This document shows positions 4,412 to 30,602 of a stretch of DNA of 36,150 nucleotides, piece by piece; position 1 is the stretch's first letter, and every line of letters begins with the position of its first letter. Source of the DNA: a virus (lineage: Duplodnaviria; Caudoviricetes); the IMG/VR virus record IMGVR_UViG_3300024988_000239, positions 1 to 36,150 of that record; one strand, given 5' to 3'. The position numbers and the translations under genes are program-made. The notes under the pieces were generated by a model. That model was not told the DNA's origin. It did not search any database and saw only the letters and a program-made list of their open reading frames with translations.

Positions 4412-5500
4412 ATGTCTAAAATACAATCCATTTTTGGGGTATATGCAAGCAGTTTGCAGGCTATCATCGACAATAGTCTCGACCGTTTCGCTCCTAACTG
4501 GTATCCTAAATACTTTGGTTGGGCTCCGGCACAACAAACCCTTACCTTCACTTCGGTGGTAGGTGCAAGCCGTATTGAAGCAGCCGCTTCGATTGTCAAT
4601 CGTTCTTCGGAAGCACCGTTGAGGGCTCGTTCAGAAATGAGCAAGTATCAGGGTGAAATTCCTGCTATTAAGCAGAAATTCTCCATGCGTGAAGGTGATT
4701 ACCGTGATTTCCTTGCTCTTCAGGCATCGAGTCTGGATGAAGCAGCTAAGAAAGCCCAGCTGTTGGACTTCTTATTCGATGATGTGAAGAAAGCCGGAAG
4801 TGCTCCACACAAACGTTTGGACATTATGGTTCTTCAGGCCATCTCTACCGGAAAGATTTCGCTCACTGTGGATAACAACCCAGACGGTATCATCTTAAAG
4901 GAGGATTTAGACCTGTTGATGCCGTTGGATAACAAGCTTTCGGTTACTACCACTGCTGAACGCAAGTGGCGCAATCCGCTTACTTCCACACCACTTACCG
5001 ACATTACCAATGTTGTTACTCAGGCCCGACTGAAAGGTCACTCGTTTGAAAAAATTCTGATGAGCATGACGCAGGCCATGCAGTTGGCTAAAAGCAAGGA
5101 AGTGATTGATAGCTTAATCTCTTTCAATCAATTGCAAAAAGGTGCTGCAATTGCTACTATTGCAAAGGTTAACGAGTACCTGCAGGCCAACTTACTTCCA
5201 CCTATCGAACTGGTAGATGAAGTGATTGGAATTGAAAAGGATGGTGTAATCAATACTATTCGTCCATGGCAGGAAGGAAACATTTCTTTCATTCCATCGG
5301 GTAAGCTGGGAGTAATCAAAAACGCTGTTTGTCTGGAACAGATGCAGCCCGTTCAGCACGTAAACTATGCCGTTTACAACCGAGCATTACTCAGCAAATG
5401 GCAGGAAAACGACCCGTGGGCAGAATTCACGGCTGTTGAGTTGAATGCTTTCCCGGCATTTGAAGCCATCGATAAGGTGTACATTCTGAATGTGGATTAA
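4412..5500 (+). CDS. Major capsid protein (lambda gpE-like family, HK97 fold)
   Basis: 362 aa, position in operon, GEIPAIKQK and LQAISTGKI motifs. Confidence 0.88.
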   Translation: MSKIQSIFGVYASSLQAIIDNSLDRFAPNWYPKYFGWAPAQQTLTFTSVVGASRIEAAASIVNRSSEAPLRARSEMSKYQGEIPAIKQKFSMREGDYRDFLALQASSLDEAAKKAQLLDFLFDDVKKAGSAPHKRLDIMVLQAISTGKISLTVDNNPDGIILKEDLDLLMPLDNKLSVTTTAERKWRNPLTSTPLTDITNVVTQARLKGHSFEKILMSMTQAMQLAKSKEVIDSLISFNQLQKGAAIATIAKVNEYLQANLLPPIELVDEVIGIEKDGVINTIRPWQEGNISFIPSGKLGVIKNAVCLEQMQPVQHVNYAVYNRALLSKWQENDPWAEFTAVELNAFPAFEAIDKVYILNVD

Positions 5501-8015: not shown

Positions 8016-8218
8016 AAAACGACAGTATCTGGTCACTGGTTGCCGGTATGGCCAAAAACTTTCCACAACTAACTTTCAACGCAATTTTATTTGAATTAAG
8101 CTACGCCAATCTTGTACTGTACAGTGCAGTATTGCCAACGTATGAAGAGGATAACGGTGATATTGATGCTGATGACCCACGAAACAAACATCTGATAAGG
8201 AGCATGCTGTATGATTAA
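7949..8218 (+). CDS. Frameshift extension of the tail chaperone (lambda gpT analogue)
   Basis: Open -1 frame overlapping the chaperone end and the tape measure start. Confidence 0.7.
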   Translation, partial: FFRAYHFPLRNKHSKKNKGGGVENDSIWSLVAGMAKNFPQLTFNAILFELSYANLVLYSAVLPTYEEDNGDIDADDPRNKHLIRSMLYD

Positions 8219-11200
8219 CGATTCCGGAAAAATATGGTACTCAACAGGTATTGATAATTCCCAATTACAGAAGGATGCTGAAAAAGCCAAAGGGCTTATC
8301 GGTGGCATCGGCCAAAAGGCGGTTGATGAGGGTAACAGGATTGATAATACCCTTAGCAACCTTAGCCGGGCTGTTGCAACTGTTTTTACCATTCAGCAGG
8401 CAACCAATTTTGCCCGTGAGATAGCAAACGTCAGAGGAGAATTCCAACAGTTGGAGATCGCTTTTACCACCATGCTCAGAAGCAAGGAGAGGGCAGATAA
8501 ACTCATGCTGGAAGTTGTGGACTTTGCAGCGACCACTCCATTCGACCTTCAGGGGGTGGCATCGGGTGCTAAACAGTTATTAGCTTATGGATTTACAGCA
8601 GATAGTATCCGTGAAAATCTCACCATGTTGGGTAACGTTGCTGCTGGTGTTGGTTCGCAGATTGGAGATATAATCTACCTGTACGGAACACTTAACGCTC
8701 AGGGTAAAGTGATGACCAAAGACCTGATGCAATTTGCAGGTCGAGGAATTCCGATCTACAAAGAGCTTGCAGCCGTACTTCAGGTAACAGAAAAAGAAGT
8801 GATGGACTTAGCATCATCCGGTCAGCTTTCCTTTCAGCATGTCGAGCAGGCTTTCAAAAACATGGTGAGCTCATCCGGAATGTTTCACAATCTGATGCAG
8901 GAGCAATCCAAATCCATCACAGGGCAGCTTTCCAACTTACGGGACTCCATCGATCAGATGTTTAACGAGATGGGTCAATCATCGGAAGGTGTAATTACAA
9001 GTGCTATTTCGGGTGCTTCGTATTTGGTGGAAAACTACCAAAAGGTGGGAGAAATTATTGCATCCCTTGTTGCCCTTTATGGAACCTACAAGGCTGCTGT
9101 GATGGTATTCAATGTTGCTCAATCCACATCCATCGCTTTAAGCAAGGGCTGGACAGTTGCTGAGCTGGCAAAGTTCAAAGCGCTGGTAATGGTTGAAGGA
9201 GCTCAAAAACTCCTCAATAAAACCATGCTGGCCAATCCTTATGTTGCAGCAACAATGGCTGTTGTTTCACTAACAACTGCTTTAACCTTTTACGCCCGCA
9301 GTGCAAAGAAAGCCCAATCAGAAACTCAAATGCTGGGCGACATTACAAAGGAAGCGGAGACTAATATCAAAGCGGAGATTACGGAACTTTCAGGCCTTAG
9401 AAAGGTGCTGGATGATTCCACTAAGGGTTATTCCGATAGAAAGAAAGCACTGGATAAAATAAAGGAGATTGTACCCGAATATCACGCATCACTCACTACC
9501 GAAGGGACGCTGATAGATAATAATTCCGAAGCACTGGATAGCTATGTAAAGAAGCTCAAATACACCGAACAGGTACGAATCGCTGTTGCTAAACAGGCAG
9601 AAGCTCAGGAGGCACTCGATAGCTGGAAAGCCAAAAATAGGGATGTTCTTGCTAATGCAGTAGCTAAAAAATACGGTGGTCGGGAGAATGAGATGTTTGC
9701 CGGAGAAAAGGCGGCCATGGACATCTACAAGCGACTTTCGGATGAGGCACACAAATACTCACTGGTGATTGATAAGCTTCAGGAAGAAATGCTTAAGGTA
9801 ACTCCTGACAGTCCTGATTTCACAGCACCTGAAAAGGAGGATAAAAACTCAGCTAAACTACTCGATCAGATTAAGAACGAAAAGATTGAAATCCAACGGA
9901 CAAAGGAGGATTTATACTTCAAACGTGTGGAAGCAGAACTCGAACTATTGGAAGATGGTTCTGCCAAAGAGCTGGCTCAACTGGAACTTAATTTCCGTCG
10001 AAAGATTACCGAAATCAACCGACAGGAGGATGAACTTCTTCAGGTTCTTCGCAATCATGCCAAAAAGGAATGGGAAGCAAAAGGTGGTCAGGGAACTTTT
10101 AACGAAAACTCCATCACTCTACCTAAGGAGCAGGCCGATGAGTTTGAACGCATGAGGGATGCCGAAAGTAAGGCTTACGACGTTGCCCAGGGTAATGTGT
10201 ACAAAAAACTCCTTGTGAAATACCAAACCTATGCTGAACAAAGGAAAAGCATCGAGGAGAAGTTTCAAAAGGACATTGCCGAGCTTTCAACCAAATTCGG
10301 AGCTGATAGTTCGGCTGTAAAGGTTGCCAACGAGCAAATGAAGCAAGCACTCGATGAGCTGGCCAAAGAAGTGCTTCAGGATAACGGTTCCGGATTGTTG
10401 GACTTATACCTTTTTGGTGATGGAACGGATTTTCTCACTTCCAAAATCAAAGAGGCACTTCCGCTATTCAAGGATATCACCAAACTATCCTACAACGAGC
10501 TTTCAAAGGTTAAGGAAATCATCGGTAAAGTGACTTTTACCGACGAGCAGTTAGCACTGTTTGAAGAAGCTGGTATCGATGTCGAGAAACTCAAAACGGC
10601 ACTGGATGAAGCTAAAGAGTCAGCCGATGAGATGCTGGATGTTAAGGCATGGGAAAAGGTTGTTGAGATGGCCCGAAAACTTTCTGATTCACTGGGTGAG
10701 TTAGGAGACTCACTTTCTACCTTTTCAGGAGCACTAGGTGAAATCGGAAAAGCTATTTCCGGCATATCAGGTAGTTTGGATGATGTGCTTACTGCATTTG
10801 ATAAAAACGCTACTTCAACGGATATCGTCAGTGCTGGTATTTCCGGACTTTCCACACTGCTTTCCATGGTAGGCAATCAGATAGCTGAAAACAAGCAGGC
10901 TCAGGAGGACTGGAATCAAAAGATACTCGAATCAGCTCACAACATGTCATTGGCTCGCATCGAGATGGAAGCCTATAGGGAATCCAACATCTTCGGTGTA
11001 GAAAATCCCTATGCAAAGGCTATAGCCGGAGCACGGCAGTATTCATCTGCTATGCTGGAGCTCAAAGCAACTGCCAACACTCTTTCTCAGGGACAGGTAC
11101 AAACCGGAACCAAACAACAGGTAGATGCCGGCAATGTCGCTACAGGAATAGGCGCAGGAGCTGCCATAGGCGCAGCCGTGGGCTCTTTTATCCCTGTAAT

Positions 11201-12065
11201 AGGCAACTTGCTGGGAGCAGCTATTGGTGCTGTTATCGGAGGAATAGCAGGAGCTGTAACCACCAAAACAGTTCCGGTATTTGAGACACTGGCTAAAACC
11301 TATGGTGAGATATTCGACAAAGATACTTTCGAACTCAACCCTCAGATACTGGCTGATTACGATAAACTGGATGAAGCAACAAAGTCTATCATTGATAACT
11401 GGCAGGAGATAGCCGATAAAGCCCGGGAAGCGCAGGAGCAAATGCGTCAAACCTTCTCGGATCTGGCCGGAGAAATTGGCTCGATGCTTTCCGATGAGCT
11501 GGTAAATGCTTTTCGAGGTGGAGATGTCTTCGGGGCTGTTGATTCCTTCAAAGGTAAAGTGACAACGGTAATAGAGGATATACTTTCACAATTCATTTTT
11601 GCTCAATACTTCGAAGGATTATTCAATAATCTCGAAAAGGAGATGATGGATAGCTTTGGCTATGATGGAGACCAAAATATTGTGGATGATATTGTTCGGT
11701 TTTCGGAAAGTTATAAAAATGCTTTGGGAGAATACTCTCAGGCAATGACAACGGTACAGGAAGAACTGGCCAAACAGGGCTTCGATATTTTCACCAATGC
11801 CCGAGTGGGTGCCAGCAAAGGTTTTCAGTCGATGTCTCAGGAGTCTGCCAATGAGCTAAACGGCAGGTTTACCGCTATTCAGGCGCATACTTATCAAATC
11901 TCAGAAAGCATTAAAAGCTTGCTGATAAACAGTGCTCAATCACTGAAATACTTATCGGGTATTGAAAGCCATACTTCAAGGCTTGAAACGATAGAAAAGT
12001 TTCTGGGTAGTTTAAAGTCAGGTATCGATGATATTAACATCAAAGGAGTGTACATAAGAGGATGA
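8211..12065 (+). CDS. Tail tape measure protein
   Basis: 1284 aa, helical. FAATTPFDL and GQLSNLRD tape-measure domain motifs, glycine-zipper hydrophobic segment near the C-terminus. Confidence 0.93.
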   Translation: MINDSGKIWYSTGIDNSQLQKDAEKAKGLIGGIGQKAVDEGNRIDNTLSNLSRAVATVFTIQQATNFAREIANVRGEFQQLEIAFTTMLRSKERADKLMLEVVDFAATTPFDLQGVASGAKQLLAYGFTADSIRENLTMLGNVAAGVGSQIGDIIYLYGTLNAQGKVMTKDLMQFAGRGIPIYKELAAVLQVTEKEVMDLASSGQLSFQHVEQAFKNMVSSSGMFHNLMQEQSKSITGQLSNLRDSIDQMFNEMGQSSEGVITSAISGASYLVENYQKVGEIIASLVALYGTYKAAVMVFNVAQSTSIALSKGWTVAELAKFKALVMVEGAQKLLNKTMLANPYVAATMAVVSLTTALTFYARSAKKAQSETQMLGDITKEAETNIKAEITELSGLRKVLDDSTKGYSDRKKALDKIKEIVPEYHASLTTEGTLIDNNSEALDSYVKKLKYTEQVRIAVAKQAEAQEALDSWKAKNRDVLANAVAKKYGGRENEMFAGEKAAMDIYKRLSDEAHKYSLVIDKLQEEMLKVTPDSPDFTAPEKEDKNSAKLLDQIKNEKIEIQRTKEDLYFKRVEAELELLEDGSAKELAQLELNFRRKITEINRQEDELLQVLRNHAKKEWEAKGGQGTFNENSITLPKEQADEFERMRDAESKAYDVAQGNVYKKLLVKYQTYAEQRKSIEEKFQKDIAELSTKFGADSSAVKVANEQMKQALDELAKEVLQDNGSGLLDLYLFGDGTDFLTSKIKEALPLFKDITKLSYNELSKVKEIIGKVTFTDEQLALFEEAGIDVEKLKTALDEAKESADEMLDVKAWEKVVEMARKLSDSLGELGDSLSTFSGALGEIGKAISGISGSLDDVLTAFDKNATSTDIVSAGISGLSTLLSMVGNQIAENKQAQEDWNQKILESAHNMSLARIEMEAYRESNIFGVENPYAKAIAGARQYSSAMLELKATANTLSQGQVQTGTKQQVDAGNVATGIGAGAAIGAAVGSFIPVIGNLLGAAIGAVIGGIAGAVTTKTVPVFETLAKTYGEIFDKDTFELNPQILADYDKLDEATKSIIDNWQEIADKAREAQEQMRQTFSDLAGEIGSMLSDELVNAFRGGDVFGAVDSFKGKVTTVIEDILSQFIFAQYFEGLFNNLEKEMMDSFGYDGDQNIVDDIVRFSESYKNALGEYSQAMTTVQEELAKQGFDIFTNARVGASKGFQSMSQESANELNGRFTAIQAHTYQISESIKSLLINSAQSLKYLSGIESHTSRLETIEKFLGSLKSGIDDINIKGVYIRG

Positions 12066-12868: not shown

Positions 12869-15307
12869 ATGAAGTTATTTGATAAAGGTGGTGATGAAAT
12901 AGTTGATTTGATTGTAGGGGATGATAGCTACCGGAATCGAAGAATTATGGGGGAGGATTCCATCACCCTCAAAGTACAGCTATTTGAACATATAGAAATC
13001 CCTGTTGGTGCATACTGTTTGCATCAGGGGGAAACTTATACCCTTTTACGGCCTCAAAATATAAGGAAAAACCACACCCGCAGTCTTGAATATACGCTTA
13101 TTTTGGAGGCTTATGCCGCTAAACTGGGGCTTTATAAGTTCAGGGATACAACAACAGGAAAGCTGAAATTCTCACTCACTGGTAAGCCTTCAGATTTTAT
13201 GGCCATGCTATTGGACAACCTCAATCAAAGGGAGCCGGGCTGGACTTTGGGTACTTGTATTGAAGCAAGTGAGAAAACCATTTCTTTTAATCATAACAAC
13301 TGTAACGAAGCATTGAAATTCATTGCAGATGCTTTCGAAACAGAATTTGAAATAATTGGAAAAATCATTTCTCTACATAAAGTAGAATATGGCAAGGAAT
13401 CTCCATTGGCTCTTTCCTATGGCAAAGGGAACGGCTTTAGAACGGGAGTAAGAAGGGAGAATTTCGAGAACTCTAACGCAATAGATATTCTCTTTGTGCA
13501 GGGAGGAACCCGAAACATCGATGCCAGCAAGTACGGATCAACAGAGCTTTTACTTCCTAAGAGCCAAACACTCACCTACGAAGGTAGAACATACCAAACC
13601 GATGAATCCGGACTATTCGTTAGTCAGGCGGATAAGACTATTTCTTTCAACGTGGAAGATAGCCTGGACTGTGCTCACTTCTATCCATCACGGGTTGGAA
13701 AGGTTTCTTCAGTGGTTGTGGTAAATGCCTCAAAGAATTTTTACGACTTTATCGATGCCACCATTCCGGAAGAGCTGAACTACAAGGACTGTCTTATAGC
13801 TGGTGAAAAAATGACTGTCGTTTTTCAATCCGGAATGCTTGCCGGAAAGGAGTTTGACTGCGACTATTCTCATCAGGATAGAAAATTCCAGATTGTCCCT
13901 CAGGAAATTGATGGGCAGATAATGCCTAATGAAATCTTCAAACCTGTTATCGATGATTCCTATGCTATCTTCGGGATTTCACTACCTGAGGCATACATAT
14001 GCAATAACTCTGATAAATCGGGCTCTTCATGGGATATGTTCCGTGAAGCTGTCAGATATTTATACGAGAATGAAGACCCTCGTTTTTCCTTCACAGGTGA
14101 GCTCGACCCGATTTGGGCAAAAAGGCAATGGCTGGAAATAGGTTCAAAAATCCGATTGGGTGGATATGTGGCTTTTACCGACGAACAGTTTCAGGCGGAA
14201 CCAGTGCTGATACGCATTATTGGCATTAAGGATTACATCAATTCTCCTTACAGTCCTGAGATAGAACTTTCCAATGTGACTATCGGAGGTGGCTTTTCCA
14301 ATACCATTAAAAAGCTGGAAACAACCGAAGTCGTAGTGGAACAAAAACATCAAGAGTCTATACGGTTTGCAAAAAGGGGATTTCGTGCAGCGCAAGAAAC
14401 AACCGAACTACTCAAAGATGCTTTCTCCAACTTTAACGGCTCGATATCCCCCGTAACCATCAGTACGATGCAGCTTTTGGTTGGTGATGAAAGCCTGCAA
14501 TTCCGCTTTGTTGATTCAAGTGATACTTCCATCGAAGTAAACCACCTTATTTCCTTTGATGCCGGAACTAAGATTCTACGTGCAGAAGCAGGGGTTATTC
14601 AGCACATGACTATCGGGGTTGAACAGATTTCCACTTCTCACAACCGGAAAGTATGGTTTATGGAAGCATATCAGTCGCCCTATTTGGATAAACCGGACAC
14701 GGCATACTACTTATACGCCAAAGTTGAGCGGGATGGGGATACGGGCGCTTTCCTGCTTTCAGAAAAACCAGTAAAGATGGAGGAGTTCACCGGATATTTT
14801 CATCTATTGGTGGCCATTGTTAACTCAGAATATCAGGGAGACAGAAGTATCGCCACCTTGTATGGATTTTCAGAAATTCTGCCCGGGAGGATTACAACAA
14901 AAAGGATAGTTTCATCGGATGGAAAAACCTATTTCGACCTTCAAAACAACCAGATTGGAGGGAATATAAAATTCATCTCAACGGATGGGGATTACACCGA
15001 TATTAACGACAAGATAACCGATGTAGAAGAAAACGTAACTTATAAAGTAGAGATTTTCAGCACAAACGGAAATACATTTCGTAATGATTTAATTGATACT
15101 ACTCTTATAGCGATGGTTTACAGAGGCAAAGAAGAAATTACATCAACTCTACCTCACACAGCCTTTCGATGGGTGCGTCAATCAGACAATCCCGATTCAG
15201 ACACAATTTGGAATCAAAGGTATTCAACTTTTCATTCTCATGTGCTCGTAATCAACAGCGATGATGTTGATGGTAGGGCTGTATTTAATTGTCAGGTAAG
15301 CATTTAA
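12869..15307 (+). CDS. Tail tip/baseplate hub (Tal-like) protein with a C-terminal Ig-like domain
   Basis: Synteny. IMGEDSITL, LSYGKGNG and GGTRNI motifs. Terminal Ig-like domain ~15041-15307. Confidence 0.8.
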   Translation: MKLFDKGGDEIVDLIVGDDSYRNRRIMGEDSITLKVQLFEHIEIPVGAYCLHQGETYTLLRPQNIRKNHTRSLEYTLILEAYAAKLGLYKFRDTTTGKLKFSLTGKPSDFMAMLLDNLNQREPGWTLGTCIEASEKTISFNHNNCNEALKFIADAFETEFEIIGKIISLHKVEYGKESPLALSYGKGNGFRTGVRRENFENSNAIDILFVQGGTRNIDASKYGSTELLLPKSQTLTYEGRTYQTDESGLFVSQADKTISFNVEDSLDCAHFYPSRVGKVSSVVVVNASKNFYDFIDATIPEELNYKDCLIAGEKMTVVFQSGMLAGKEFDCDYSHQDRKFQIVPQEIDGQIMPNEIFKPVIDDSYAIFGISLPEAYICNNSDKSGSSWDMFREAVRYLYENEDPRFSFTGELDPIWAKRQWLEIGSKIRLGGYVAFTDEQFQAEPVLIRIIGIKDYINSPYSPEIELSNVTIGGGFSNTIKKLETTEVVVEQKHQESIRFAKRGFRAAQETTELLKDAFSNFNGSISPVTISTMQLLVGDESLQFRFVDSSDTSIEVNHLISFDAGTKILRAEAGVIQHMTIGVEQISTSHNRKVWFMEAYQSPYLDKPDTAYYLYAKVERDGDTGAFLLSEKPVKMEEFTGYFHLLVAIVNSEYQGDRSIATLYGFSEILPGRITTKRIVSSDGKTYFDLQNNQIGGNIKFISTDGDYTDINDKITDVEENVTYKVEIFSTNGNTFRNDLIDTTLIAMVYRGKEEITSTLPHTAFRWVRQSDNPDSDTIWNQRYSTFHSHVLVINSDDVDGRAVFNCQVSI

Positions 15308-15332
15308 AAATTTTCAATCATTAAATAAGAAT

Positions 15333-16739
15333 ATGGCAAAATTAGTTTCAACAGGACAAATTACCATCGTTGATAATAACGATGCAAGGCCGATAACGGC
15401 ATTTATCACTGCTAGTCAGGGAACACAACAAATCTACACAAAGGATGAAAGCACAGTTACCTCAGTTCCAAACTGGTCATCGACTCCCAATATATTAAGT
15501 GCTAAGGTTTATGTTGGTGGTACTTCTTCGGCAGTTGATGTAACAGCACAGTTAGCAAACAGAAAGTGGTCGAATGATCTTAATACATCTATTGGAAGTG
15601 GAACAACCCTGACAGTAAACACAAACATGGACCCGGTTTCTGCTCCATCTAAAGTGTACTACTTTGAAGCTGACTATACCGATCCTATTACTGGACTGGT
15701 TTCTCATATTATAGCTCAAATCACACTAACAGTTGTCCGTACTGGTACCAATGCTGTATATCTCTTACCAAGAGGAACGACTGCTATTCAGCAAGCTGAC
15801 GGGAGTACTAAAAATGTGGCAGTAGTTTGTGTTGACTTGGTTCGTGCAGCAGGAATTGACACCTCGGGTATTACCTATAAATTCTACGAGTCAAATGGTA
15901 CGGTTCAGGTTACTACCTCCATGAATACGAAATACGGAATGAAAACCACTTCCACCTCATCTGCTCCAACAGGAACGGCATCGGACATTGGAAGTAATCT
16001 GCCGGCTTCCAATGCCTGGTCAGCGCATAATACACTGGTTATTCACGAAACGGCAGTTGCCGATATTGCTGTGTTCCGTGCTGAAGCTAAAGATGCTGAT
16101 GGCAATATCTATCAGTGTTATTTTACTATTTATGATGTTTCTGATCCATATGAAGTTAAGCTCATCTCTACAGCCGGAGAGAAACTTCAAAACGGAGTAG
16201 GAAGTACAAATATCTATCCCATGGTTTGGAACGGAGCAAGTCAACTGAGTTTGGGTGATACTGCCAACTGGTCGTTCACGTGGTTTTTCTACGATGGCGC
16301 TGCTCCTGGCAATCGTGCCGGATTTATTGATACAACCCGAACAGCCGTTGCAGGTGGACGAAGTATAACGTCAAATACTGCTGGAGCAGGTAGTGTGATA
16401 ACATATTCGGGTGCTGCAATCACTTTTGCTGCTGGTGATATGGTGAAAATTGTAAAGGGAGATGGAACCGCCAAATACTATGAAGTAGCAAGTGGAACAA
16501 CTACATCCAACCTTACATTAAGAACCGCTACAGTTTCAACATTCCTAAATAGTCCATGGCCTGCTGCTTCGATTACATCCAATGAATTTGCGGGAGGTAA
16601 ACTTTATGTGTGTACAGGTTCGGGAAGCACTGCCGGAACAAGAACAACAACGGGTACTGGTTCTTCCAACTTCATCACGGTAACAGGTGATGAAATTGAT
16701 GGTAAAGGAACCATTATCTGTGAAGCAAATCGCCCATAA
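15333..16739 (+). CDS. Tail fibre/filament subunit with tandem Ig-like domains
   Basis: Thr/Ser/Gly-rich beta protein. The last domain aligns by eye with the C-terminal domain of the upstream Tal-like protein. Confidence 0.72.
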   Translation: MAKLVSTGQITIVDNNDARPITAFITASQGTQQIYTKDESTVTSVPNWSSTPNILSAKVYVGGTSSAVDVTAQLANRKWSNDLNTSIGSGTTLTVNTNMDPVSAPSKVYYFEADYTDPITGLVSHIIAQITLTVVRTGTNAVYLLPRGTTAIQQADGSTKNVAVVCVDLVRAAGIDTSGITYKFYESNGTVQVTTSMNTKYGMKTTSTSSAPTGTASDIGSNLPASNAWSAHNTLVIHETAVADIAVFRAEAKDADGNIYQCYFTIYDVSDPYEVKLISTAGEKLQNGVGSTNIYPMVWNGASQLSLGDTANWSFTWFFYDGAAPGNRAGFIDTTRTAVAGGRSITSNTAGAGSVITYSGAAITFAAGDMVKIVKGDGTAKYYEVASGTTTSNLTLRTATVSTFLNSPWPAASITSNEFAGGKLYVCTGSGSTAGTRTTTGTGSSNFITVTGDEIDGKGTIICEANRP

Positions 16740-16748
16740 TTATTCTAC

Positions 16749-16779
16749 GAGGGCTGTTGAGTAGCAGCCCTCTTTTTTT
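16749..16779 (+). terminator. Intra-operon terminator or mRNA-stabilising hairpin
   Basis: GAGGGCTGTT-gagt-AGCAGCCCTC followed by T7. Confidence 0.8.
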
Positions 16780-16802
16780 ACGAACAGACTTTTTACGTTG
16801 AC

Positions 16803-19715
16803 ATGTCCAAATTAGTTAGTACTGCACAAATAACACTTACAGATCAGAATGACTATATTTTTACAAGTTCAATTCCTCCAGCAAATCCGATTACAGGATT
16901 GACCTTGTGGATTGATACTTCAATTACACCTAATCACTTAAAGCGATGGAATGGCTATGATTGGGAAATAGTGAATGATGTGAAGATTGGAGGGACTAAC
17001 TTACTTCCTAATTCAAGTTTTGAAGATAAGATCAACTTGTGGACAGTTCATGGGCCAGATGTCGTTCAAAGTGTTACTGGTGGATATGACGGAGGTTTGT
17101 GTATTTACATTCCTGGGGTAGGACAGGTAAATGCTGGATTATATCTTCCGCATGTTACATGTGAAACTGGACAGGTATACACCTTCAGTTGCATGGTTAA
17201 AGTTGTCTCGGTTGGTATACGTGTAAGTCTTGGCTGGAGAGATAGTTATAATTCGTCAATCCAAGGTCAACTGGCAAGCTTACCACTAAATACATGGCGA
17301 AAGGTTAATGTTACATTTATGGGTGATGGTTCAACAGCGCCAATTTATTTAATTTCGACAGGATATAATCTGTACATCGATCATGTGAAATTGGAGAAAG
17401 GCAACACAGCAACTGACTGGTCACCTTCTCCACATGATACAATTAAGATTGCAGGCAGAAATCTTTTAACAAACAGTGGTATGCCAATAACGAGTAGTGC
17501 CTATCTTGTTAAAGAATATCAGGTAACTTCACTATCTGTAAATGAAAAATATACGATTGTTATAAAAGCAATTGTTGCTATTGGACAAATGTTGGGAGTT
17601 TATTGGAACGGAGGCTTTAATCTTGCTAAAATTTTCAACAGACAAGAAGGTGAAAGCCTGTATTATGCTCATATTACCAGCCCTAATTCATTAACAAGCA
17701 ATTCTCTTTGGGTGTATAATTTGCCAAATTCGGGTGCACAAATGACAATCAAATTTGCATGTTTGTACGAGGGGCATATTTCACCTCCTATTGACTGGTC
17801 GCCAGCTCCTGAAGATATGCTTTTACAGCTGAATGATATTTCAGATGATAACAAACTTACACCTGATGAAAAGCAAAGGGCTTTAAAGGAATGGGAATCA
17901 ATACAGAGTGAAGTTAGCCCTATCAGAACTCAGGCTGATTTATTCAAAGTCAGTCGTACAATCTATGATGCCGTATATTCTACTTTACATTCATACATTA
18001 CACCGTTATTGTCAAATCTCACTACAACGAGTGATATCGTTGGCTCAACATTCAGATCTAGGTTTAATGAATATTACACTGCAAGAACAAATTTATTGTT
18101 AGCCATCAGCAAGCAGCAAATGGACAATGTTGATAACATCATTGTAGGTGGTGAAAATCTCTACAACGACAGCAAAGAACTGTATGTTTGGTCTCCTGGA
18201 GGTTCAACACCAACAATAGCAAGGAACACTACAAATACTCCAAACGGATTTGAATTTTTATCTTCAGATGGCGGAAATGGTGTTGATGTGAGAATATCAA
18301 ACGTAATACATGGAAATGGTTACTACGTAGTTTCATTTTGGGCTAAAGTAATATCCGGGACTCATTCCATCAATGTGGATTTGGCTGATAATTTTGCCGG
18401 ATCTTTTGTTTTGAATACTAGTTGGAAAAGAATTGAAGCTATCGCTAATGTGCAGAATTACACTCAGACAATCTACCATTTTGTGGATATTTCTACCAGC
18501 TCGTACATGACGTGTTATGTTAAAGATTTTCAAGTTCAAAGAGGTAATAAATCTACGGAATACAGAAAATCTACGGAATTTATAACTCAAGCAATTCAAG
18601 GAAGCACTGATATTAACGGAGGTTTAGTTGCAACTCATTTATTGATGCTTAAAAACAATAGTAATTCTGTTACGAGTGGAGTGTCCGGGCTAAGTTCAGA
18701 CAATATTGGATTTTGGTCAGGAGGAACTTACAGTGAAGCATTAAATGGCTCTGCAAATACGTTAATCAGAAAAGATGGAAGTGGTCATTTTGCCGGAGGA
18801 AATATAAACTGGGATGTCTCGGGAAATATTGCCTTTAGAGGTTTTGTTGATGCAATTGGAGGACGAATAGGAGGAATGACAATCCAGCAAAATTCACTTG
18901 CCACATTGAATCTAAGTTTTTCAGATACTCCGGTTGAATCCATTGCCAGTCTGCTTTCTCCATCAACTGCATATTTTTATTATCAGAGCACTTGGTTTAA
19001 TTCTGATATGAATACTGCACATGCGTATACACAACAACTGTATTTGACTATTGATGCACAAATTTCTTTTAAGGTAACTACAACCTCAGATGGCGACGCT
19101 AAGAGGTGGAGAGTAGAAATCATTAATCCGGATAGTCAAATAGTTTTTGCTGATACAGGTATAGGGGTCATTACTAAAAAGCTGTACACAATCAATTTGA
19201 GAGCTGGTTCTTATGTATTACATGCTTACTCAACAAGCTCAGCTATAATACCCTTGATAGCATTAAACTCAGCTTTAATTGAGGGTGCGTTTCAATCAGA
19301 CTTATTGCAGGCAACCGGTTTTGTCAATCAAACTAAAATTGGGAACAATGGATTATATTCTTTTTGGAGCAATCAGCTTTATCTGTATTTCTCCAGTCAA
19401 ACAGGATTTGAACTAAAAGGTCCAACGAACATGCCTGGTGTTTTAGCTAGTGGAAGTATAGATAGTTCCGGAGCTCATACAAATTATTGGGGAGCAAAGA
19501 TAAACACATCAAATGCCAGTTATACAGCTACAGGCATCTATGATGTTCCGCATAGAGCAGGGTCAGTTTATCAGGTTATGATACAGCCAACCATTGATAA
19601 TGTACGTGCTGTTGTTACATCAAAAGGATACAATACATTCAGAGTGCAGCTTAGAACTAACTCAGGTTCAGCAACATTGGGAAGTTTTGATTATGTGATT
19701 TTTGGGGATAATTAG
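16803..19715 (+). CDS. Tail fibre/receptor-binding protein with three carbohydrate-binding-module-like repeats
   Basis: Repeat starts KIGGTNLL, KIAGRNLL, IVGGENLY. Repeat ends KLEKGNTATDWSPSP, DWSPAPED, QVQRGNKSTEY. Confidence 0.75.
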   Translation: MSKLVSTAQITLTDQNDYIFTSSIPPANPITGLTLWIDTSITPNHLKRWNGYDWEIVNDVKIGGTNLLPNSSFEDKINLWTVHGPDVVQSVTGGYDGGLCIYIPGVGQVNAGLYLPHVTCETGQVYTFSCMVKVVSVGIRVSLGWRDSYNSSIQGQLASLPLNTWRKVNVTFMGDGSTAPIYLISTGYNLYIDHVKLEKGNTATDWSPSPHDTIKIAGRNLLTNSGMPITSSAYLVKEYQVTSLSVNEKYTIVIKAIVAIGQMLGVYWNGGFNLAKIFNRQEGESLYYAHITSPNSLTSNSLWVYNLPNSGAQMTIKFACLYEGHISPPIDWSPAPEDMLLQLNDISDDNKLTPDEKQRALKEWESIQSEVSPIRTQADLFKVSRTIYDAVYSTLHSYITPLLSNLTTTSDIVGSTFRSRFNEYYTARTNLLLAISKQQMDNVDNIIVGGENLYNDSKELYVWSPGGSTPTIARNTTNTPNGFEFLSSDGGNGVDVRISNVIHGNGYYVVSFWAKVISGTHSINVDLADNFAGSFVLNTSWKRIEAIANVQNYTQTIYHFVDISTSSYMTCYVKDFQVQRGNKSTEYRKSTEFITQAIQGSTDINGGLVATHLLMLKNNSNSVTSGVSGLSSDNIGFWSGGTYSEALNGSANTLIRKDGSGHFAGGNINWDVSGNIAFRGFVDAIGGRIGGMTIQQNSLATLNLSFSDTPVESIASLLSPSTAYFYYQSTWFNSDMNTAHAYTQQLYLTIDAQISFKVTTTSDGDAKRWRVEIINPDSQIVFADTGIGVITKKLYTINLRAGSYVLHAYSTSSAIIPLIALNSALIEGAFQSDLLQATGFVNQTKIGNNGLYSFWSNQLYLYFSSQTGFELKGPTNMPGVLASGSIDSSGAHTNYWGAKINTSNASYTATGIYDVPHRAGSVYQVMIQPTIDNVRAVVTSKGYNTFRVQLRTNSGSATLGSFDYVIFGDN

Positions 19716-19769: not shown

Positions 19770-21605
19770 ATGAAAAAGCCTATTCTGAATTTATTTTTCA
19801 TTCTAATTGGAATTGCTTTTGTAAGTTGTGATGAAGAAGTTGACCCTAAACTGTTGCCAGTTGTTAGCACGACAGAAGTTAGATCAATTTCATACTACTC
19901 AGCTCAAAGTGGTGGTGTAATCACTGGAGATGGTGGTTATGATGTAATAGCCCGTGGAGTTTGTTGGAATACTTCTCCAAATCCGGATATTAAAGGCTCA
20001 AAGACAGTCGATGCTGCCGGAACAGGAACTTTTGAAAGCTCGATAGATAGCCTTTTACCCGGCACTACTTATTATTTGAGAGCTTATGCAACCAACAAGA
20101 AAGGAACATCTTACGGATTGCAAGTTACTTTTACTACAAAAAATCTCACTTTATCTGAAGTTATTACATCTCCGGTAACATCAATCACGAGTACTTCAGC
20201 CTTAACAGGAGGTTCAATTTTTATAGATGGAGGTACACCAATAACTGCCCGTGGAGTCTGTTGGAGTATGGCACCAAATCCCACGAAAAATGATAGTACA
20301 ACCGTTGATGGGGCCGGTATTGGTAATTTTATCAGCACACTTTCAAGATTGAAAACCGGCACTACGTATTATGTAAAAGCATATTCGACAAATTCTCAAG
20401 GCACTTCGTACGGTAATGAAGTGCAATTTAGAACACAATTATCAATACCAGAAGTAAGAACTTCTGCAATTACTTCTATTACATCATCTTCTGCAATTTC
20501 GGGAGGTGAAATTTTACATGATGGAGGTGAAGCAGTAAGTGCTAGGGGGATTTGTTGGAGCACATCACCAAGCCCTACTATCAATAACAGTAAAACTGTG
20601 ACCGGATCAGGAGTAGGAAGTTATACAAGCACACTTTCAAATTTAAAATCCGGAACTCAATACTACGTTAGGGCTTATGCTACTAATTCAATAGGAACTG
20701 CCTACGGGAATGAATTAACCTTTACTTCAACATTAGGCTTGCCTGAACTTTCTACTATTAAAGTTACAGATATAATATCAGGCACGGCAAAGTGTGGTGG
20801 CATTATTACGCATGATGGTGGAGCCGAGATTACCTCAAGAGGTGTGTGTTGGAGCACTTCACCAAATCCTTCGTTAACCGACAATAGAACAACAGATGGA
20901 ATTGGGACTGGTAGTTTTACAAGCAATTTGGTAAACTTGCAGCAAGGGGAATTTTATTTTGTCAGAGCCTATGCAACGAATTCAGTTGGTATTTCATATG
21001 GCAATGAAATCAAATTTTACATAACTAATCCGGGAGAGGTTTATAATCCTGTCACCGGAAGAATTTGGATGGACCGAAACCTTGGTGCAAGCCGTGTTGC
21101 TACATCAGCCACTGATGAACAAGCCTATGGAGATTTATATCAGTGGGGACGTGCTACGGATGGACATGAGAAGCGCACTTCTCCGACAACTACTATTTTA
21201 AGTATTCGTGATACTCCCAATCATGGTTATTTTATCATCGTAAAAAGTGGTGTTTTAGACTGGCGTACACCTCAAAACAATTACCTGTGGAGTAAAAAAT
21301 ACAATATTAACAATCCTTGTCCTGAGGGATTTCGCGTACCCACTGCAGATGAATGGGAGGCAGAACGTGCCAGCTGGAGTAGTAATGGCTCGGCAGGAGC
21401 TTTTGATTCTCCTCTGAAATTGCCCCTGGCGGGCTACCGCTTCCTCGGCTCAGATACGCTTTTCAATGTTGGTACCAAAGGTTATTATTGGTCAGCTGAT
21501 GTGCATGGTACGTACGCTAAACTCCTGTATTTCTTCAGTAGCGAAGCGCACATAAACACCCTAAGCCGTGCGTACGGATTCTGTGTTCGCTGCATCAAAG
21601 ATTAA
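19770..21605 (+). CDS. Lipoprotein with four FN3-like repeats and a C-terminal Fibrobacter succinogenes major-domain-like (CLec fold) region
   Basis: Lipobox FVSC then DEE. Four ~97-aa repeats RGVCW...YYxRAYATN...YG. WMDRNLGA, GDLYQWGR, PCPEGFRVPT, GYYWS, GFCVRCIKD. Own -7 element TAGCTTTG at 19736-19743. Confidence 0.85.
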   Translation: MKKPILNLFFILIGIAFVSCDEEVDPKLLPVVSTTEVRSISYYSAQSGGVITGDGGYDVIARGVCWNTSPNPDIKGSKTVDAAGTGTFESSIDSLLPGTTYYLRAYATNKKGTSYGLQVTFTTKNLTLSEVITSPVTSITSTSALTGGSIFIDGGTPITARGVCWSMAPNPTKNDSTTVDGAGIGNFISTLSRLKTGTTYYVKAYSTNSQGTSYGNEVQFRTQLSIPEVRTSAITSITSSSAISGGEILHDGGEAVSARGICWSTSPSPTINNSKTVTGSGVGSYTSTLSNLKSGTQYYVRAYATNSIGTAYGNELTFTSTLGLPELSTIKVTDIISGTAKCGGIITHDGGAEITSRGVCWSTSPNPSLTDNRTTDGIGTGSFTSNLVNLQQGEFYFVRAYATNSVGISYGNEIKFYITNPGEVYNPVTGRIWMDRNLGASRVATSATDEQAYGDLYQWGRATDGHEKRTSPTTTILSIRDTPNHGYFIIVKSGVLDWRTPQNNYLWSKKYNINNPCPEGFRVPTADEWEAERASWSSNGSAGAFDSPLKLPLAGYRFLGSDTLFNVGTKGYYWSADVHGTYAKLLYFFSSEAHINTLSRAYGFCVRCIKD

Positions 21606-21629: not shown

Positions 21630-21666
21630 AAAAAACCGGAACATCACTGCTCCGGTTTTTGTTTTT
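21630..21666. terminator. Bidirectional terminator between convergent lipoprotein genes
   Basis: AAAAAACCGGA-acatcactgc-TCCGGTTTTT. Confidence 0.78.
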
Positions 21667-22231
21667 AATGCAATCCCTGCTTTTTCAATTCCCTATATTC
21701 AGCACCCGTTATTGGCCTAAACTTAAATGCGTTGTAGAATAATCTATACACTTCATCGTATTTCTGTTCTGCAAAAGCCAAACGAATTTTCCGTTCTGCT
21801 TCTCTTAACACTGCATTCGGAATATAGGCGATTGTGTCAATGTCATCGTTTGCTCTAAATATTTCAATAACCATATCATACGCTTCAAGTAAGTCCGGTA
21901 TAAAATATCCATCAGGATGTAATATATCAGTGGCATATCTTAGTAATGCCGGTTCTTCTGAAATGGTATCTTTCCCGGCAAATCCTATAGATGCACCTAG
22001 TCCGGTTGTAGCATTCAATGCTGCATTGTAGCATCTGATATTGTTAGCTCGTTTGACGATCTCCAAATGAGTAAGATGTTCCGGGTTTTCGGAGACTCTT
22101 TGTGCAATTGCATTCGACATTTGCTTCTCTCCTTTTATTTGCAACATAGTTGTAGGGTCAAGATAGAACCCTCTTTCTTGCTCACATGATATGAGCGTAA
22201 CAATCAACGAAATAAATAAAATCCTATTCAT
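21665..22231 (-). CDS. Lipoprotein of unknown function (moron)
   Basis: Lipobox LISC then EQE. Minus-strand TATATTTG -7 element at 22258-22265. Confidence 0.8.
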   Translation of the reverse strand: MNRILFISLIVTLISCEQERGFYLDPTTMLQIKGEKQMSNAIAQRVSENPEHLTHLEIVKRANNIRCYNAALNATTGLGASIGFAGKDTISEEPALLRYATDILHPDGYFIPDLLEAYDMVIEIFRANDDIDTIAYIPNAVLREAERKIRLAFAEQKYDEVYRLFYNAFKFRPITGAEYRELKKQGLH

Positions 22232-24835: not shown

Positions 24836-25291
24836 ATGACAGTTTACAAAAGCCCCATGCCCGAAATTTCAATCAAGTACAAAGCAGGGCACCTTAAAAA
24901 AGCACTCGTTACATGTTCTCAACATCTTTATGAAGTATTCAAAGAAATGTACGACCAAGACACCGTCGAAATCATTGAATCTATGGTTGTCCTTTACTTG
25001 AACAATGGTAACAAAACAATAGGCTGGACAAGGCATTCATCGGGTGGAACCTGTCACACGGTAGTAGATGTGCGGATGATTATGACAGAAGCACTCCTAT
25101 GCGGAGCTACCACCATTGCAATCAGCCATAATCATCCTTCAGGCCAGTTGTTTCCCAGCAAAGAGGATGAAAGAATCACTCAGAAACTAAAAGCAGCATG
25201 TGATTTCATGCAAATGCGATTACTGGATCATATCATAGTCCCGGGAGATTTAAACGGTTATTATTCATTTTGCGATGAAGGAAAAATCTAA
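24836..25291 (+). CDS. RadC-like JAB/MPN domain protein
   Basis: E...LYLN, SHNHPSG..PSKED, LLDHII motifs. Confidence 0.92.
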   Translation: MTVYKSPMPEISIKYKAGHLKKALVTCSQHLYEVFKEMYDQDTVEIIESMVVLYLNNGNKTIGWTRHSSGGTCHTVVDVRMIMTEALLCGATTIAISHNHPSGQLFPSKEDERITQKLKAACDFMQMRLLDHIIVPGDLNGYYSFCDEGKI

Positions 25292-25309
25292 TCAATAAAA
25301 TATCAGGTT

Positions 25310-26422
25310 ATGAAACTTATAGTTCACAATTTCACACCAAACGGGCTGCAAAAAGCGCAGCCCTTAAATGAACTTCCAATCGGAATGAAAGTATATGCTT
25401 ATGGAGCATTCGGTTCAGAAAGTATTTACTGCATTACAGGCCCAATGACAAAACGTGGTCAGGAGATGTGTTTGATTTCCCGCTGGAGTCCGAACGCTTA
25501 CTTTGCCAGCCCCAAAAATTATCTTGATACTTATAGTAAGCCTGTTTCAAAAAAGTTTGGAATTGGTTTCTACTGGGATGATGTCGATAACCATATCTTC
25601 CCTGAATCACGAGTAAAAGCAGCTATCAGGCGTGCTGAATGGATAGAGAGGAAGATTGCCAAAATGAATGAAGAAAAACGACAGGCAGAGCAGAATGAGC
25701 TTGCAGAACTACCGGGCCGTTATCCTCACTTAACACCGATACCAAACGATTGTAAGGATTGGTACAGGGCAGTCAAGGCAAACATTGTCGCCGAGTTGAA
25801 GCATCACTTTCCCGACCATAAGTTTTCAGTGAACAAAGATGGTGACAGATCTGTCAGAATTAGCTGGTACGATGGATTAGTGAGCGAAAAGGTAGATGAT
25901 GTAATGCGCAAGTTTGAAAGCCATAAAAGTGATGTTACAGGCGACTATTGGGATTTTTCACCTTCCTGTTTCAATACTGTTTTCGGAGGAATGAAGTTCG
26001 TATTCATTAATCGGTACATGTCGGAAGAAGTGAAGAAACTCACCAAACAGGTTAAAGAAATTCTTCCTGACAGGTATAAGGCTGTCGACCAGCAGCTACT
26101 TCGGGAGTACTGGTCAGAAACCGATTTTCCATTCAATGCTACCAACATAAGGGTAGTAGAAAACCCGGATGCCAAAGGTGTCAATGATTTATTCTCTTTT
26201 CAGTACGATATTCCGGAAAAGCTTACTTCTGTTGCTTCTCCTGAAGGAATACAAGTCGTAGAATACTCACCCAAAAGCTTTGCTGTAATCGGTGATACAA
26301 AGCCCCTAAAAGACAAATTAAAAGCCCTTGGTGGTAAGTTTAACTTCCGGCTTACTTGTGGAGCTGGATGGATTTTCCCAAACACTCTTAAAGAAAACGT
26401 CTTAGAAGCTTTACAGTTATGA
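25310..26422 (+). CDS. Multidomain protein with an LPD29-like (polyvalent protein-associated) domain and a C-terminal small domain
   Basis: ANIVAELKHHFPDHKFSV...SVRISWYDG...FNTVFGG and YSPKSFAVIGDTKPLKDKLKALGGKFN...GWIF. Confidence 0.72.
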   Translation: MKLIVHNFTPNGLQKAQPLNELPIGMKVYAYGAFGSESIYCITGPMTKRGQEMCLISRWSPNAYFASPKNYLDTYSKPVSKKFGIGFYWDDVDNHIFPESRVKAAIRRAEWIERKIAKMNEEKRQAEQNELAELPGRYPHLTPIPNDCKDWYRAVKANIVAELKHHFPDHKFSVNKDGDRSVRISWYDGLVSEKVDDVMRKFESHKSDVTGDYWDFSPSCFNTVFGGMKFVFINRYMSEEVKKLTKQVKEILPDRYKAVDQQLLREYWSETDFPFNATNIRVVENPDAKGVNDLFSFQYDIPEKLTSVASPEGIQVVEYSPKSFAVIGDTKPLKDKLKALGGKFNFRLTCGAGWIFPNTLKENVLEALQL

Positions 26423-26709
26423 AAGAATTCATCAAAGAAAAGCTGGTTGAAATGTACTCAACCTGCACTACTGACCAGTACGGTCAGGTTGCAAAGTTTA
26501 ACTTCGGACTTAAAAGATTATTCGGAGACAAAACCGAAGAGGTGTTGGAATACATCAAAACCGACCCGGTGATAAGTTACTCAACTTATGGCAATCGTTA
26601 TGGCACCTACAAAGCAGTAATGGACATTCTCGATGAGGAAATTAAAAGCGCTTGGGTTGATGCCCTGAGAAGCAAGGTAAACTATCAACGTAATATGAGG
26701 AGCTGGTAA
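26419..26709 (+). CDS. Hypothetical protein
   Basis: ATGA overlap with the upstream gene. Confidence 0.72.
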   Translation: MKEFIKEKLVEMYSTCTTDQYGQVAKFNFGLKRLFGDKTEEVLEYIKTDPVISYSTYGNRYGTYKAVMDILDEEIKSAWVDALRSKVNYQRNMRSW

Positions 26710-26711
26710 TC

Positions 26712-26882
26712 ATGACAAAGACAAGACAAGCTGAAATAACGCTTTATTGCAATGGTTACAGCATCGAGTATGCAATCTCTCCAAGAGAAAAGAAGCTGGC
26801 AGTAGCTGTCAAAGATGAAAAGCGAACCTACGGAACCACAGTGCCGGAACTGGTGAAAAAGCTGAATCTAATCAATCATTAA
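26712..26882 (+). CDS. 56-aa hypothetical protein, absent from the ORF track
   Basis: ATG 26712 to TAA 26882 (MTKTRQAEITLYCNGYSIEY...LNLINH) fills the gap between neighbours almost exactly. Confidence 0.65.
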   Translation: MTKTRQAEITLYCNGYSIEYAISPREKKLAVAVKDEKRTYGTTVPELVKKLNLINH

Positions 26883-26891
26883 AACAAAGTT

Positions 26892-27107
26892 ATGTTAGCA
26901 AACAGACGAGACCTTCGCAAACTAAAATCAATCTCCGGAATGGCAGGCAAACTTCGGTCTGCCTATACCGGACTTTCTCAACCCACAAAAGAGATGCTTC
27001 AACGGGAGTTCCGTGGTGGAACTGAAAACCATATTATCCGGTTTGAAGCGAACATAAATCAAGTTGTTGAATCCATTAAATCTGAAAAACATGAAAGTAC
27101 GTTGTGA
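26892..27107 (+). CDS. Hypothetical basic protein
   Basis: 71-aa ORF in operonic spacing. Confidence 0.65.
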   Translation: MLANRRDLRKLKSISGMAGKLRSAYTGLSQPTKEMLQREFRGGTENHIIRFEANINQVVESIKSEKHESTL

Positions 27108-27267
27108 TATTTGCCGGGATTTATATATCCTGACGCCTAAAGAAGCACTTTATAATGAAGGATTGCTCGAAACAAGAATTTGCCCGGATTGTGAGCTGTA
27201 TGTTGATATGAGCCCGGCTGATAGTTGTGAGTATATGTCGTATTCGGATGCTGATAGCGGATTGTAG
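27091..27267 (+). CDS. Small zinc-ribbon-like protein
   Basis: CDIC...CPDC with an acidic tail YSDADSGL. ATG at 27091. Confidence 0.65.
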   Translation: MKVRCDICRDLYILTPKEALYNEGLLETRICPDCELYVDMSPADSCEYMSYSDADSGL

Positions 27268-27292
27268 TTTATAAGGTAATTTCAAAACAATT

Positions 27293-27333
27293 GGCAGAAT
27301 CTCTGGCTTAATAAGTCGGGGATTTTGTGTTTT
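27293..27333 (+). terminator. Intrinsic terminator
   Basis: GCAGAATCTCTGGCTT-aat-AAGTCGGGGATTTTGT followed by a T-rich tail. Confidence 0.6.
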
Positions 27334-27685
27334 AAGTGTATTGTTCTTAACCAAATATGTGTTCATGCACTGAGAGTAATTGCTGGTGGTTACAATTGAA
27401 TTTAACATCAATCAGTTAAACACTTCGAAGTTAATACTTGATAATGTCGATTATTTAGCTCTATCTTAGGGTATGCATCATAACACATTTGAATAATAGT
27501 ACAAATATGTATGCTGTAAAACATGTATTTTGTTTACTGAATTTGGAAAATAAAAACGTATTTTTGCAATAATCGTAAACCTATCGGGAGCGCTGTTTTG
27601 TGTCATTTGTTAACTGCAAGCTTGACCACAGAAATGTAAGAAATAAGAATAATTACAGTAACAAGTATCGTAAAAATTAAATATA

Positions 27686-28099
27686 ATGAAATCGTATTTT
27701 CCAAAACAATGTTTTCTAACGTTAAGACTGTTGATAATTAGTTCATTATCCATTTTGACCTTTTTTTCTTGTTGTGAAGAGGAAATAGACAATAATAGCA
27801 CATTAAACAAAGACAATTACTATGTGAATTATATTATTAAAGCTCCTGTACCATATGGTAGATTTAGCAATTGGACTGCATCTACCCCTGATGGGACATA
27901 TAGTAATAGTGGTTTTCTGACAAGTAGTTGGGGTCAAACATTCGGACCTGTTAAAAAGGGATTTAATTGTAGCGTACAAATTGGATTTTATCAAGGAGGA
28001 ATTCCTAATATTGAAATTCATGTTTCAAAAAATGATGAACCTTTCGCTTTAAAAGCAAATGAAACAGGAGCATCAGCATCATACGTTATTAATTTTTAA
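27686..28099 (+). CDS. Lipoprotein of unknown function
   Basis: Hydrophobic signal ending FFSCC then EEE. Upstream TATTTTTG at 27559-27566. Confidence 0.75.
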   Translation: MKSYFPKQCFLTLRLLIISSLSILTFFSCCEEEIDNNSTLNKDNYYVNYIIKAPVPYGRFSNWTASTPDGTYSNSGFLTSSWGQTFGPVKKGFNCSVQIGFYQGGIPNIEIHVSKNDEPFALKANETGASASYVINF

Positions 28100-29300: not shown

Positions 29301-29318
29301 CTTCTAATTTCTAACTTT

Positions 29319-30578: not shown

Positions 30579-30602
30579 TTAATTCATAGTTTGTATGTGA
30601 AT

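Follow-up and report, generated by a model that had tools for sequence, protein, structure and literature searches.

A probable donor-strand joint between consecutive tail-fibre proteins encoded by a prophage

Two consecutive genes of a prophage tail operon stop inside an Ig-like domain, and each is followed by a gene that opens with what could be the missing strand. How such proteins are joined is of general concern: little is resolved of the way in which long flexible host-recognition fibres attach to phage tail tips, as such parts often blur in cryo-EM and have mostly been modelled singly. The original prediction was that a Tal-like protein, a 468-aa protein (the extender) and a 970-aa protein (the tip) are chained by donor-strand complementation as in pili, and that the middle subunit could form a repeating shaft. 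Here we ask whether the gene ends are genuine, whether ends and strands belong together, and whether the product would be a short fibre or a polymer.

The window, by which we mean the whole stretch of 36,150 nucleotides analysed, is part of contig C14 of a 4.18-Mb bacterial genome and carries a siphophage-type morphogenesis operon, as identified by profile searches and Pfam/PHROG annotation (Table 1). The tape measure gene is succeeded by the 267-aa gene, Tal, the extender, the tip, a gene with FN3 and Fib_succ_major domains and the lysis genes. The closest named relative of the extender gene (94% over residues 1-288) sits in a Paludibacter assembly, and we therefore infer that the window is a Bacteroidota prophage. 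Both gene breaks are covered by one contig of an independent sequencing run, X1 (13597-18153, 0 gaps), and independent related loci terminate the corresponding genes at identical residues. Therefore, the breaks are genuine, and a frameshift or assembly artefact was rejected.

Table 1. Coordinates of tail-operon genes and of the putative joint elements in the window.
Feature	Position	Strand	Basis or description
Major capsid gene	4412-5500		Siphophage-type operon
Tape measure gene	8211-12065		Siphophage-type operon
267-aa tail gene, Dit position	Between tape measure and Tal genes		phrog_6305
Tal-like baseplate hub protein, 812 aa, fibre anchor	12869..15307	+	Pfam Prophage_tail, E 2.4e-9
Putative socket 1, C-terminal Ig-like domain of Tal ending after strand F	15041..15304	+	Sequence; socket-profile search of the library
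Extender, 468 aa: donor strand and three Ig-like domains, the last without strand G	15333..16739	+	phrog_3267, E 2.8e-40
Donor strand 1, extender residues 2-17, ends in DNND	15336..15383	+	Monomer model, conservation, complex model
Socket 2, third Ig-like domain of extender, residues 272-468, ends at strand F	16146..16736	+	DSSP of model
All-beta insertion of ~93 aa (residues 340-432) within socket 2	16350..16628	+	AF2 model
Intrinsic-terminator-like hairpin, 10-bp stem (16749-16772) and T run	16749..16780	+	Between extender and tip genes
Tip protein, 970 aa, without socket	16803..19715	+	Donor, small beta module, likely carbohydrate-binding modules, putative C-terminal tail-fibre end
Donor strand 2, tip residues 2-17, ends in DQND	16806..16853	+	27.5 bits, profile trained only on extender N-termini

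Two genes lie between the tail and lysis genes. The first (19770-21605, + strand) encodes FN3 repeats and a Fib_succ_major domain in 611 aa and has a hairpin with a T run behind it; the second, of 188 aa, is on the opposite strand (21665-22231, - strand). Both proteins have N-termini that look lipoprotein-like by eye, and both are likely cargo genes. Adjoining the prophage lysis genes, the stretch 24836-31253 contains a RadC-like JAB, an LPD29 and an SRAP gene (Pfam), together with an S24 peptidase and impB/mucB-family polymerase pair.

All of the motifs quoted in the original prediction were found where it had placed them. The Tal protein, which also matches phrog_19846 (E 8e-183), has YKVEIFS at residue 725, where its terminal domain begins, and stops immediately after ...RAVFNCQVSI. 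The extender starts MAKLVSTGQITIVDNND and stops after ...KGTIICEANRP, and the tip gene opens with MSKLVSTAQITLTDQND. The hexapeptide AQITLT occurs at 15714 and at 16824, with synonymous codons differing between the copies. The claim that Tal and the extender share one Ig-like end held up: their terminal domains are homologous over the first half (hhalign probability 47%, E 2e-4) and both match phrog_3267. The extender belongs to this family, its residues 2-345 matching most of the profile (positions 2-349 of 369).

An AlphaFold2 (AF2) model of the extender monomer, made from a 92-sequence alignment, has a mean pLDDT of 89 and an Ig-like fold (NCAM Ig1, Z 9.3, rmsd 3.1, 98 aligned), the match covering mostly residues 22-271. 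Domains 1 (residues 21-137) and 2 (143-271) each close with a predicted G strand (123-137 and 259-268, respectively), whilst domain 3 ends with strand F (459-466). Most of residues 1-15 have a pLDDT below 50 and all lack secondary structure, therefore the donor strand is unpacked from domain 1. Thus in the AF2 monomer we saw neither an N-terminal strand packed into its own first domain nor a complete terminal sandwich, no strand following F. Searches for relatives of known structure gave little: Foldseek of the whole model returned only generic Ig, cadherin and adhesin repeats (TM-scores ≤0.30), the extender and tip profiles had no solved sequence relative, and neither did the socket profile when searched against solved structures (best E 0.21).

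The two ends are also constant amongst homologues, 306 of which were found. Of the 120 listed, 118 have the donor motif at their start and 117 end exactly 10 residues past the E-F loop motif, as does the window protein. The most conserved part of the extender is the donor (residues 4-17), with 79% mean identity versus 42-53% elsewhere. Residues G8, Q9, D14, D17, D268 and D271 are invariant in 92/92 aligned sequences, and the N-terminal junction (D14xxD17, strand A at 21) mirrors the internal one (D268xxD271, strand A at 273). Linkers between cadherin domains bind calcium; by analogy, the conserved acidic residues at the junctions (D14, D17, D268, D271 and D456) might do likewise. The insertion in the third domain is missing from Firmicutes extenders of 366-375 aa, and the clade that bears it, including the window's extender, is found with both Bacteroidota- and Proteobacteria-type anchors. 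Neither Pfam nor PHROG yielded a hit for it, and no sequence hit in the PDB went below E 0.024. The insertion had escaped the original prediction, as had the hairpin between the extender and tip genes. Extra inserted sequence makes some extenders still longer, at 573-634 aa, and in these the donor and the open socket are both retained (L118:7971-9740, which is Basilisk gp50, L073 and L102); that of Basilisk is 589 aa, and length variation comes from inserted domains.

We trained a donor profile on extender N-termini alone and ran it over the host genome's 9798 ORFs of 100 aa or more. The top two hits were the N-termini of the extender (42.7 bits, the training family) and the tip (27.5 bits), followed by five other ORFs at 8-16.5 bits. 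As the two N-termini rank highest in this set, a chance motif was rejected.

If ends and strands belong together they should occur together elsewhere, and they do. We collected 115 loci that hold an extender (window included), of which 56 are non-redundant at <80% identity. The gene upstream of the extender ends no more than 10 residues from the socket profile in 56/56 of these, although the profile was built from 15 anchors and about a quarter of the loci (or their duplicates) are thus not independent. The anchors are of several types, among them Bacteroides-type Tal, the central fibre J (gpJ), collagen-type or small fibres (16 proteins scanned) and Bacillus myophage tail proteins. Three loci, in which the extender is cut or the downstream DNA too short, were left out of the donor count, leaving 53 complete loci. 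At a threshold of 8 bits, a donor begins the immediately following gene in 43 of them and the gene after that in 6 more (49/53). Among 391 control ORFs only 6 reach the threshold, all of them donors one gene further on. The 10 loci without a hit in the next gene therefore comprise these 6, three low-scoring Firmicutes donors that can be seen by eye (6.4, 2.6 and -1.1 bits) and one fusion. Exactly two donor-starting genes are present in 50/56 loci, and no tip gene in the 56 ends in a socket. Truncated Ig ends and N-terminal strands thus co-occur across homologous loci, a check that the original prediction had proposed.

A library-wide search with the socket profile recovered 1988 cluster representatives, of which 985 have E ≤ 1e-10. 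The best 150 of the 1988 all carry the copy no further than 4 residues from the C-terminus, a result favoured by a profile made from terminal copies, and none of the 150 begins with a donor. No socket was found in the 300 other genomes searched from the host's phylum. Across 13 loci compared, the extender keeps ~75% identity even where little or no relationship is left between the Tal bodies and between the tip bodies. Judged by sequence comparison, the mobile unit among phages consists of socket, extender and tip residues 1-60.

Some loci depart from the usual arrangement. In L020, L034, L039, L063, L067 and L098 an uncharacterised gene of ~390-480 codons (stop to stop) stands between extender and tip; at least four of these genes appear related by eye, and the one scanned is a weak match to a PHROG of unknown function. 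In phage Izhevsk an HNH gene occupies this place. The Tal socket of Listeria phage LP-HM00113468 (L119:4888-8266) is internal (residues 375-463, with 301 residues behind it) and the next gene starts with a donor, an arrangement that may represent a side branch rather than an end-to-end joint. In L076 (L076:5986-7302) both donors and both sockets depart from the consensus jointly, the donors being identical at 12/14 residues; together with L008, grouped as a similar type, we label such loci a natural test case for shared specificity.

Natural fusions place the same elements on one chain. In phiNIT1 orf1237, socket 2 runs directly into a donor-like strand and then the small beta module of the tip, whilst in B4 gp247 the anchor socket is joined directly to a tip-type donor and the extender is absent. 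P0156 is a single chain of socket (260-349), donor, extender, donor (737) and tip module. The known fusions contain one extender or none. P0156 (1671 aa) terminates in an additional open socket (1583-1669), and its chain may therefore continue with another gene; a single-sequence fold of this protein was set aside (mean pLDDT 31).

We then modelled the strand in its socket, pairing socket 2 with residues 1-140 of the extender itself. The complex scored an ipSAE of 0.72, compared with 0.00 for the best of three controls; the runs share at least 94% of contacts and the partner has a pLDDT of at least 81. The ipSAE mark is reached by 116/157 solved and 2/215 mismatched pairs, which are rough counts as our own alignment was used. 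The confident interface consists exclusively of extender residues 2-16. In the model the donor strand runs antiparallel to F (11:460, 8:463, 6:465) and adjoins A (10:277), with I10 packed against core residue 294, and the modelled geometry is that of donor-strand complementation. The model contains no steric bar to self-assembly of the extender, and the insertion does not block it. As the mark is often reached even when a true partner is replaced by a close cousin (10/12 colicin pairs), the model shows no partner preference. Covariation gave a mixed picture: across 49 loci the pairing of the donor with the extender's own socket ranked highest (ratio 1.49; anchor socket 1.31, background 1.21), whereas across 118 sequences the modelled contact pairs had a mean Z of 0.24 (p ~0.03, uncorrected) versus Z 5-7 for internal F-G pairs. 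Of the self-assembly predicted for the 468-aa protein, modelling bears out the fit of the donor to its own socket, whereas a repeating filament goes beyond the one pair that was modelled.

Taken together, the gene ends, co-occurrence, fusions, unpacked N-terminal strand and complex model make it highly probable that Tal, extender and tip join by donor-strand complementation. Co-occurrence, the fusions and the extender's monomer and complex models also back the roles first assigned to the three proteins, namely Tal as acceptor only, the extender as donor and acceptor, and the tip as donor only. We propose that the three genes would give one central tail fibre consisting of a base (Tal), an extender and a tip. 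The unfinished Ig-like domain of Tal would accept the N-terminal strand of the extender, whose own unfinished domain would accept the strand of the tip, and the most likely product would be a short chain with one or few extenders. To this reading as a whole we give a probability of roughly 0.6. Tal proteins are trimeric, and three parallel strings per Tal trimer may be expected. The tip would mediate adhesion to the host, and the split into genes would benefit tip exchange. Sequence similarity makes carbohydrate-binding modules in the tip likely (PF02018 is on record for its homologue P0122), whilst phrog_19846, already noted for Tal, recurs in the tip, where residues 592-701 align with its C-terminal part. 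In the window the two donors are identical at 10/14 residues and in other loci at up to 13/14, so the donor strand cannot set subunit order; no ordering mechanism was identified for the fibre parts. The constancy of two donor-starting genes per locus and the change in length by inserted domains favour a short chain.

The extender could instead homopolymerise into a pilus-like shaft, with Tal and tip as chain stoppers and the expression ratio, set partly by the terminator, determining mean length. We regard this as possible, though rather unlikely. The extender-extender model supports it as much as the joint itself, as the donor fits its own socket and the insertion is no obstacle. Within a locus the two donors share 10.1/14 residues, compared with 9.15 across loci (50 loci; 0/20000 permutations reached it), and non-consensus donor residues are shared in 37/94 cases versus 14% across loci; third positions, at 39% versus 34% expected, do not point to recent DNA copying between donors. 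However, with nearest-neighbour loci as the reference this resemblance is weaker (27 better, 15 worse, 8 ties). The conservation of the extender beside unrelated Tal and tip bodies is also in keeping with a shaft. The hairpin behind the extender of the window (-17.7 kcal/mol) is the strongest behind any of 15 window genes tested, and hairpins of ≤ -10 kcal/mol follow the extender stop in 15/50 loci and the anchor in 0/50, 12 of the 15 falling among the 18 loci with gaps of at least 30 nt; yet 49/280 other ORFs have one too (p = 0.05 against these), 3 of the 15 lie in coding sequence and most loci have none. Codon usage gave no mark of high extender expression.

Data on virions bear on the same point. 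The Tsamsa extender homologue, gp222, is 94% identical to that of Izhevsk and is among six named virion gel bands in the available part of the article, which makes no mention of gp221 and gp223 on either side of it as bands (PMC3903500), although detection of a gel band is not equal to copy number. The terminator after the extender and this virion band fit extra extender copies better than a 1:1:1 ratio. Against a long polymer, Izhevsk has the split cassette and its fibre-like structures, in the accessible text, reach only up to 30 nm (PMC7685451). Moreover, the fusions carry a single extender, B4 manages without any, and no chaperone or usher family was present among the 30 of 56 window ORFs scanned with Pfam. 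The predicted repeating shaft is thus feasible in the complex model, but both the published EM and the fusions rather favour a fibre that is short and defined. In its widest form the polymer account makes the 468-aa protein a phage-encoded, chaperone-free pilin that would build a variable shaft on any socket-ended anchor (Tal, gpJ or myophage tail proteins), with an exchangeable adhesin cap and terminator-tuned length, which we put forward only tentatively.

It is improbable that the terminal domains are instead stable six-strand or self-trimerising sandwiches, with N-terminal strands that are relics of gene fission or bind elsewhere: AF2 is confident on the extender's last domain when it is modelled alone (last blocks at pLDDT 86-95) and there is no solved relative to compare that domain with, but a relic would decay, whereas the donor is the best conserved part of the protein; fusions have the donor directly behind the socket, and the complex model has it between strands A and F.

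Our preferred reading, a short fibre held by donor-strand joints, has several consequences. A portable socket-and-strand joint would explain the swapping of tips between unrelated tail types and would offer a 16-residue tag for fixing modules onto phage particles. It would also give a function to an unannotated family of dairy and Bacillus phages, which are easy to study. Should the extender polymerise, this would be a pilus-like polymer made inside the cell without chaperone or usher.

Lastly, we compared the proposed fibre with known systems. In chaperone-usher pili (Fim, Pap, CFA/I) an Ig-like subunit lacks strand G, and the next subunit fills the gap with its own N-terminal strand. The extender resembles these in its modelled G-less domain, in its N-terminal extension, predicted to complete a neighbour's fold, and in the predicted base-shaft-tip logic. 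However, signal peptides are absent, as the extender and tip begin directly with the strand; no periplasmic chaperone or outer-membrane usher family was found among the ORFs scanned; and the context is a phage tail operon. Membership of this class was therefore rejected. Chaperone-usher pili are exported, whereas the phage fibre would be assembled on the virion. The phage chain would grow outward from the anchor's socket with the tip as donor, whilst the chaperone-usher tip adhesin is an acceptor. Moreover, unlike in those pili, the extender has three domains and fused forms exist. The type V pili of Bacteroidales, also invoked by the original prediction, are the wrong comparison in polarity, because type V pilins are made as lipoprotein precursors and donate a C-terminal strand. 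The extender and tip have no lipobox, and the spare strand is N-terminal with none at the C-terminus, so this class was rejected too.

The nearest known phage joint is that of Lactococcus phage Tuc2009, where, in the accessible part of the article, the C-terminal beta-hairpin of BppU completes the C-terminal sandwich of BppA in a crystal structure (PMC4742702). As predicted here, a phage adhesion device has one Ig-like (titin-like) domain completed from two proteins. In the Tuc2009 joint as described there the polarity is opposite and the number of strands differs, the downstream protein here being predicted to give a single N-terminal strand, and a subunit with both donor and acceptor ends is found here only. 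A joint of the BppU-BppA type was therefore rejected.

The same three-domain extender, with the same ends and gene order, occurs in the phrog_3267 tail proteins O1205 ORF43, bIL286 orf55, Tsamsa gp222 and Izhevsk gp202, and is fused in phiNIT1 orf1237, which is annotated as phiEF24C gp31-like. Dairy phages carry the cassette in split form (ORF42/43/45 of O1205 or Sfi11; orf54/55/57 of bIL286). Gene order places the extender between the anchor and the host-adsorption genes, and the Tsamsa homologue points to its presence in the virion (PMC3903500, available part). According to the accessible text, phiEF24C gp31 has been mapped to one thin tail fibre, 78.6 +/- 4.2 nm in length (PMC3201976); this length says little, since the link is only via the phiNIT1 annotation and the protein would be of the fused type. 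The accessible parts of six articles (PMC11406892, PMC11741397, PMC5371800, PMC3952083, PMC10454425 and PMC12917162) do not describe the joint; Kirov has 'a protruding fiber-like structure', its length not stated. Sources available in part yielded no useful virion proteomics or EM for P59 and Basilisk. The joint was likewise undescribed in the open-access articles retrieved on phage tails, tail tips or tail fibres with donor strand or strand complementation. This is probably a real, widespread and undescribed split-Ig joint in phage tail fibres.

Streptococcal and lactococcal siphophages have single-chain Tal extensions in which, as far as the accessible text goes, a hub is followed by a helix, an Ig-like domain, 3-beta modules, carbohydrate-binding modules and a trimeric end (PMC9437275, PMC9692632). 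This order resembles that of Tal plus tip here. The fusions, and the match of phrog_19846 to both Tal and the tip's end, suggest that the three genes behave as pieces of one Tal extension; in the phages described there it is one polypeptide, whereas here it is split across three genes inside the Ig domains.
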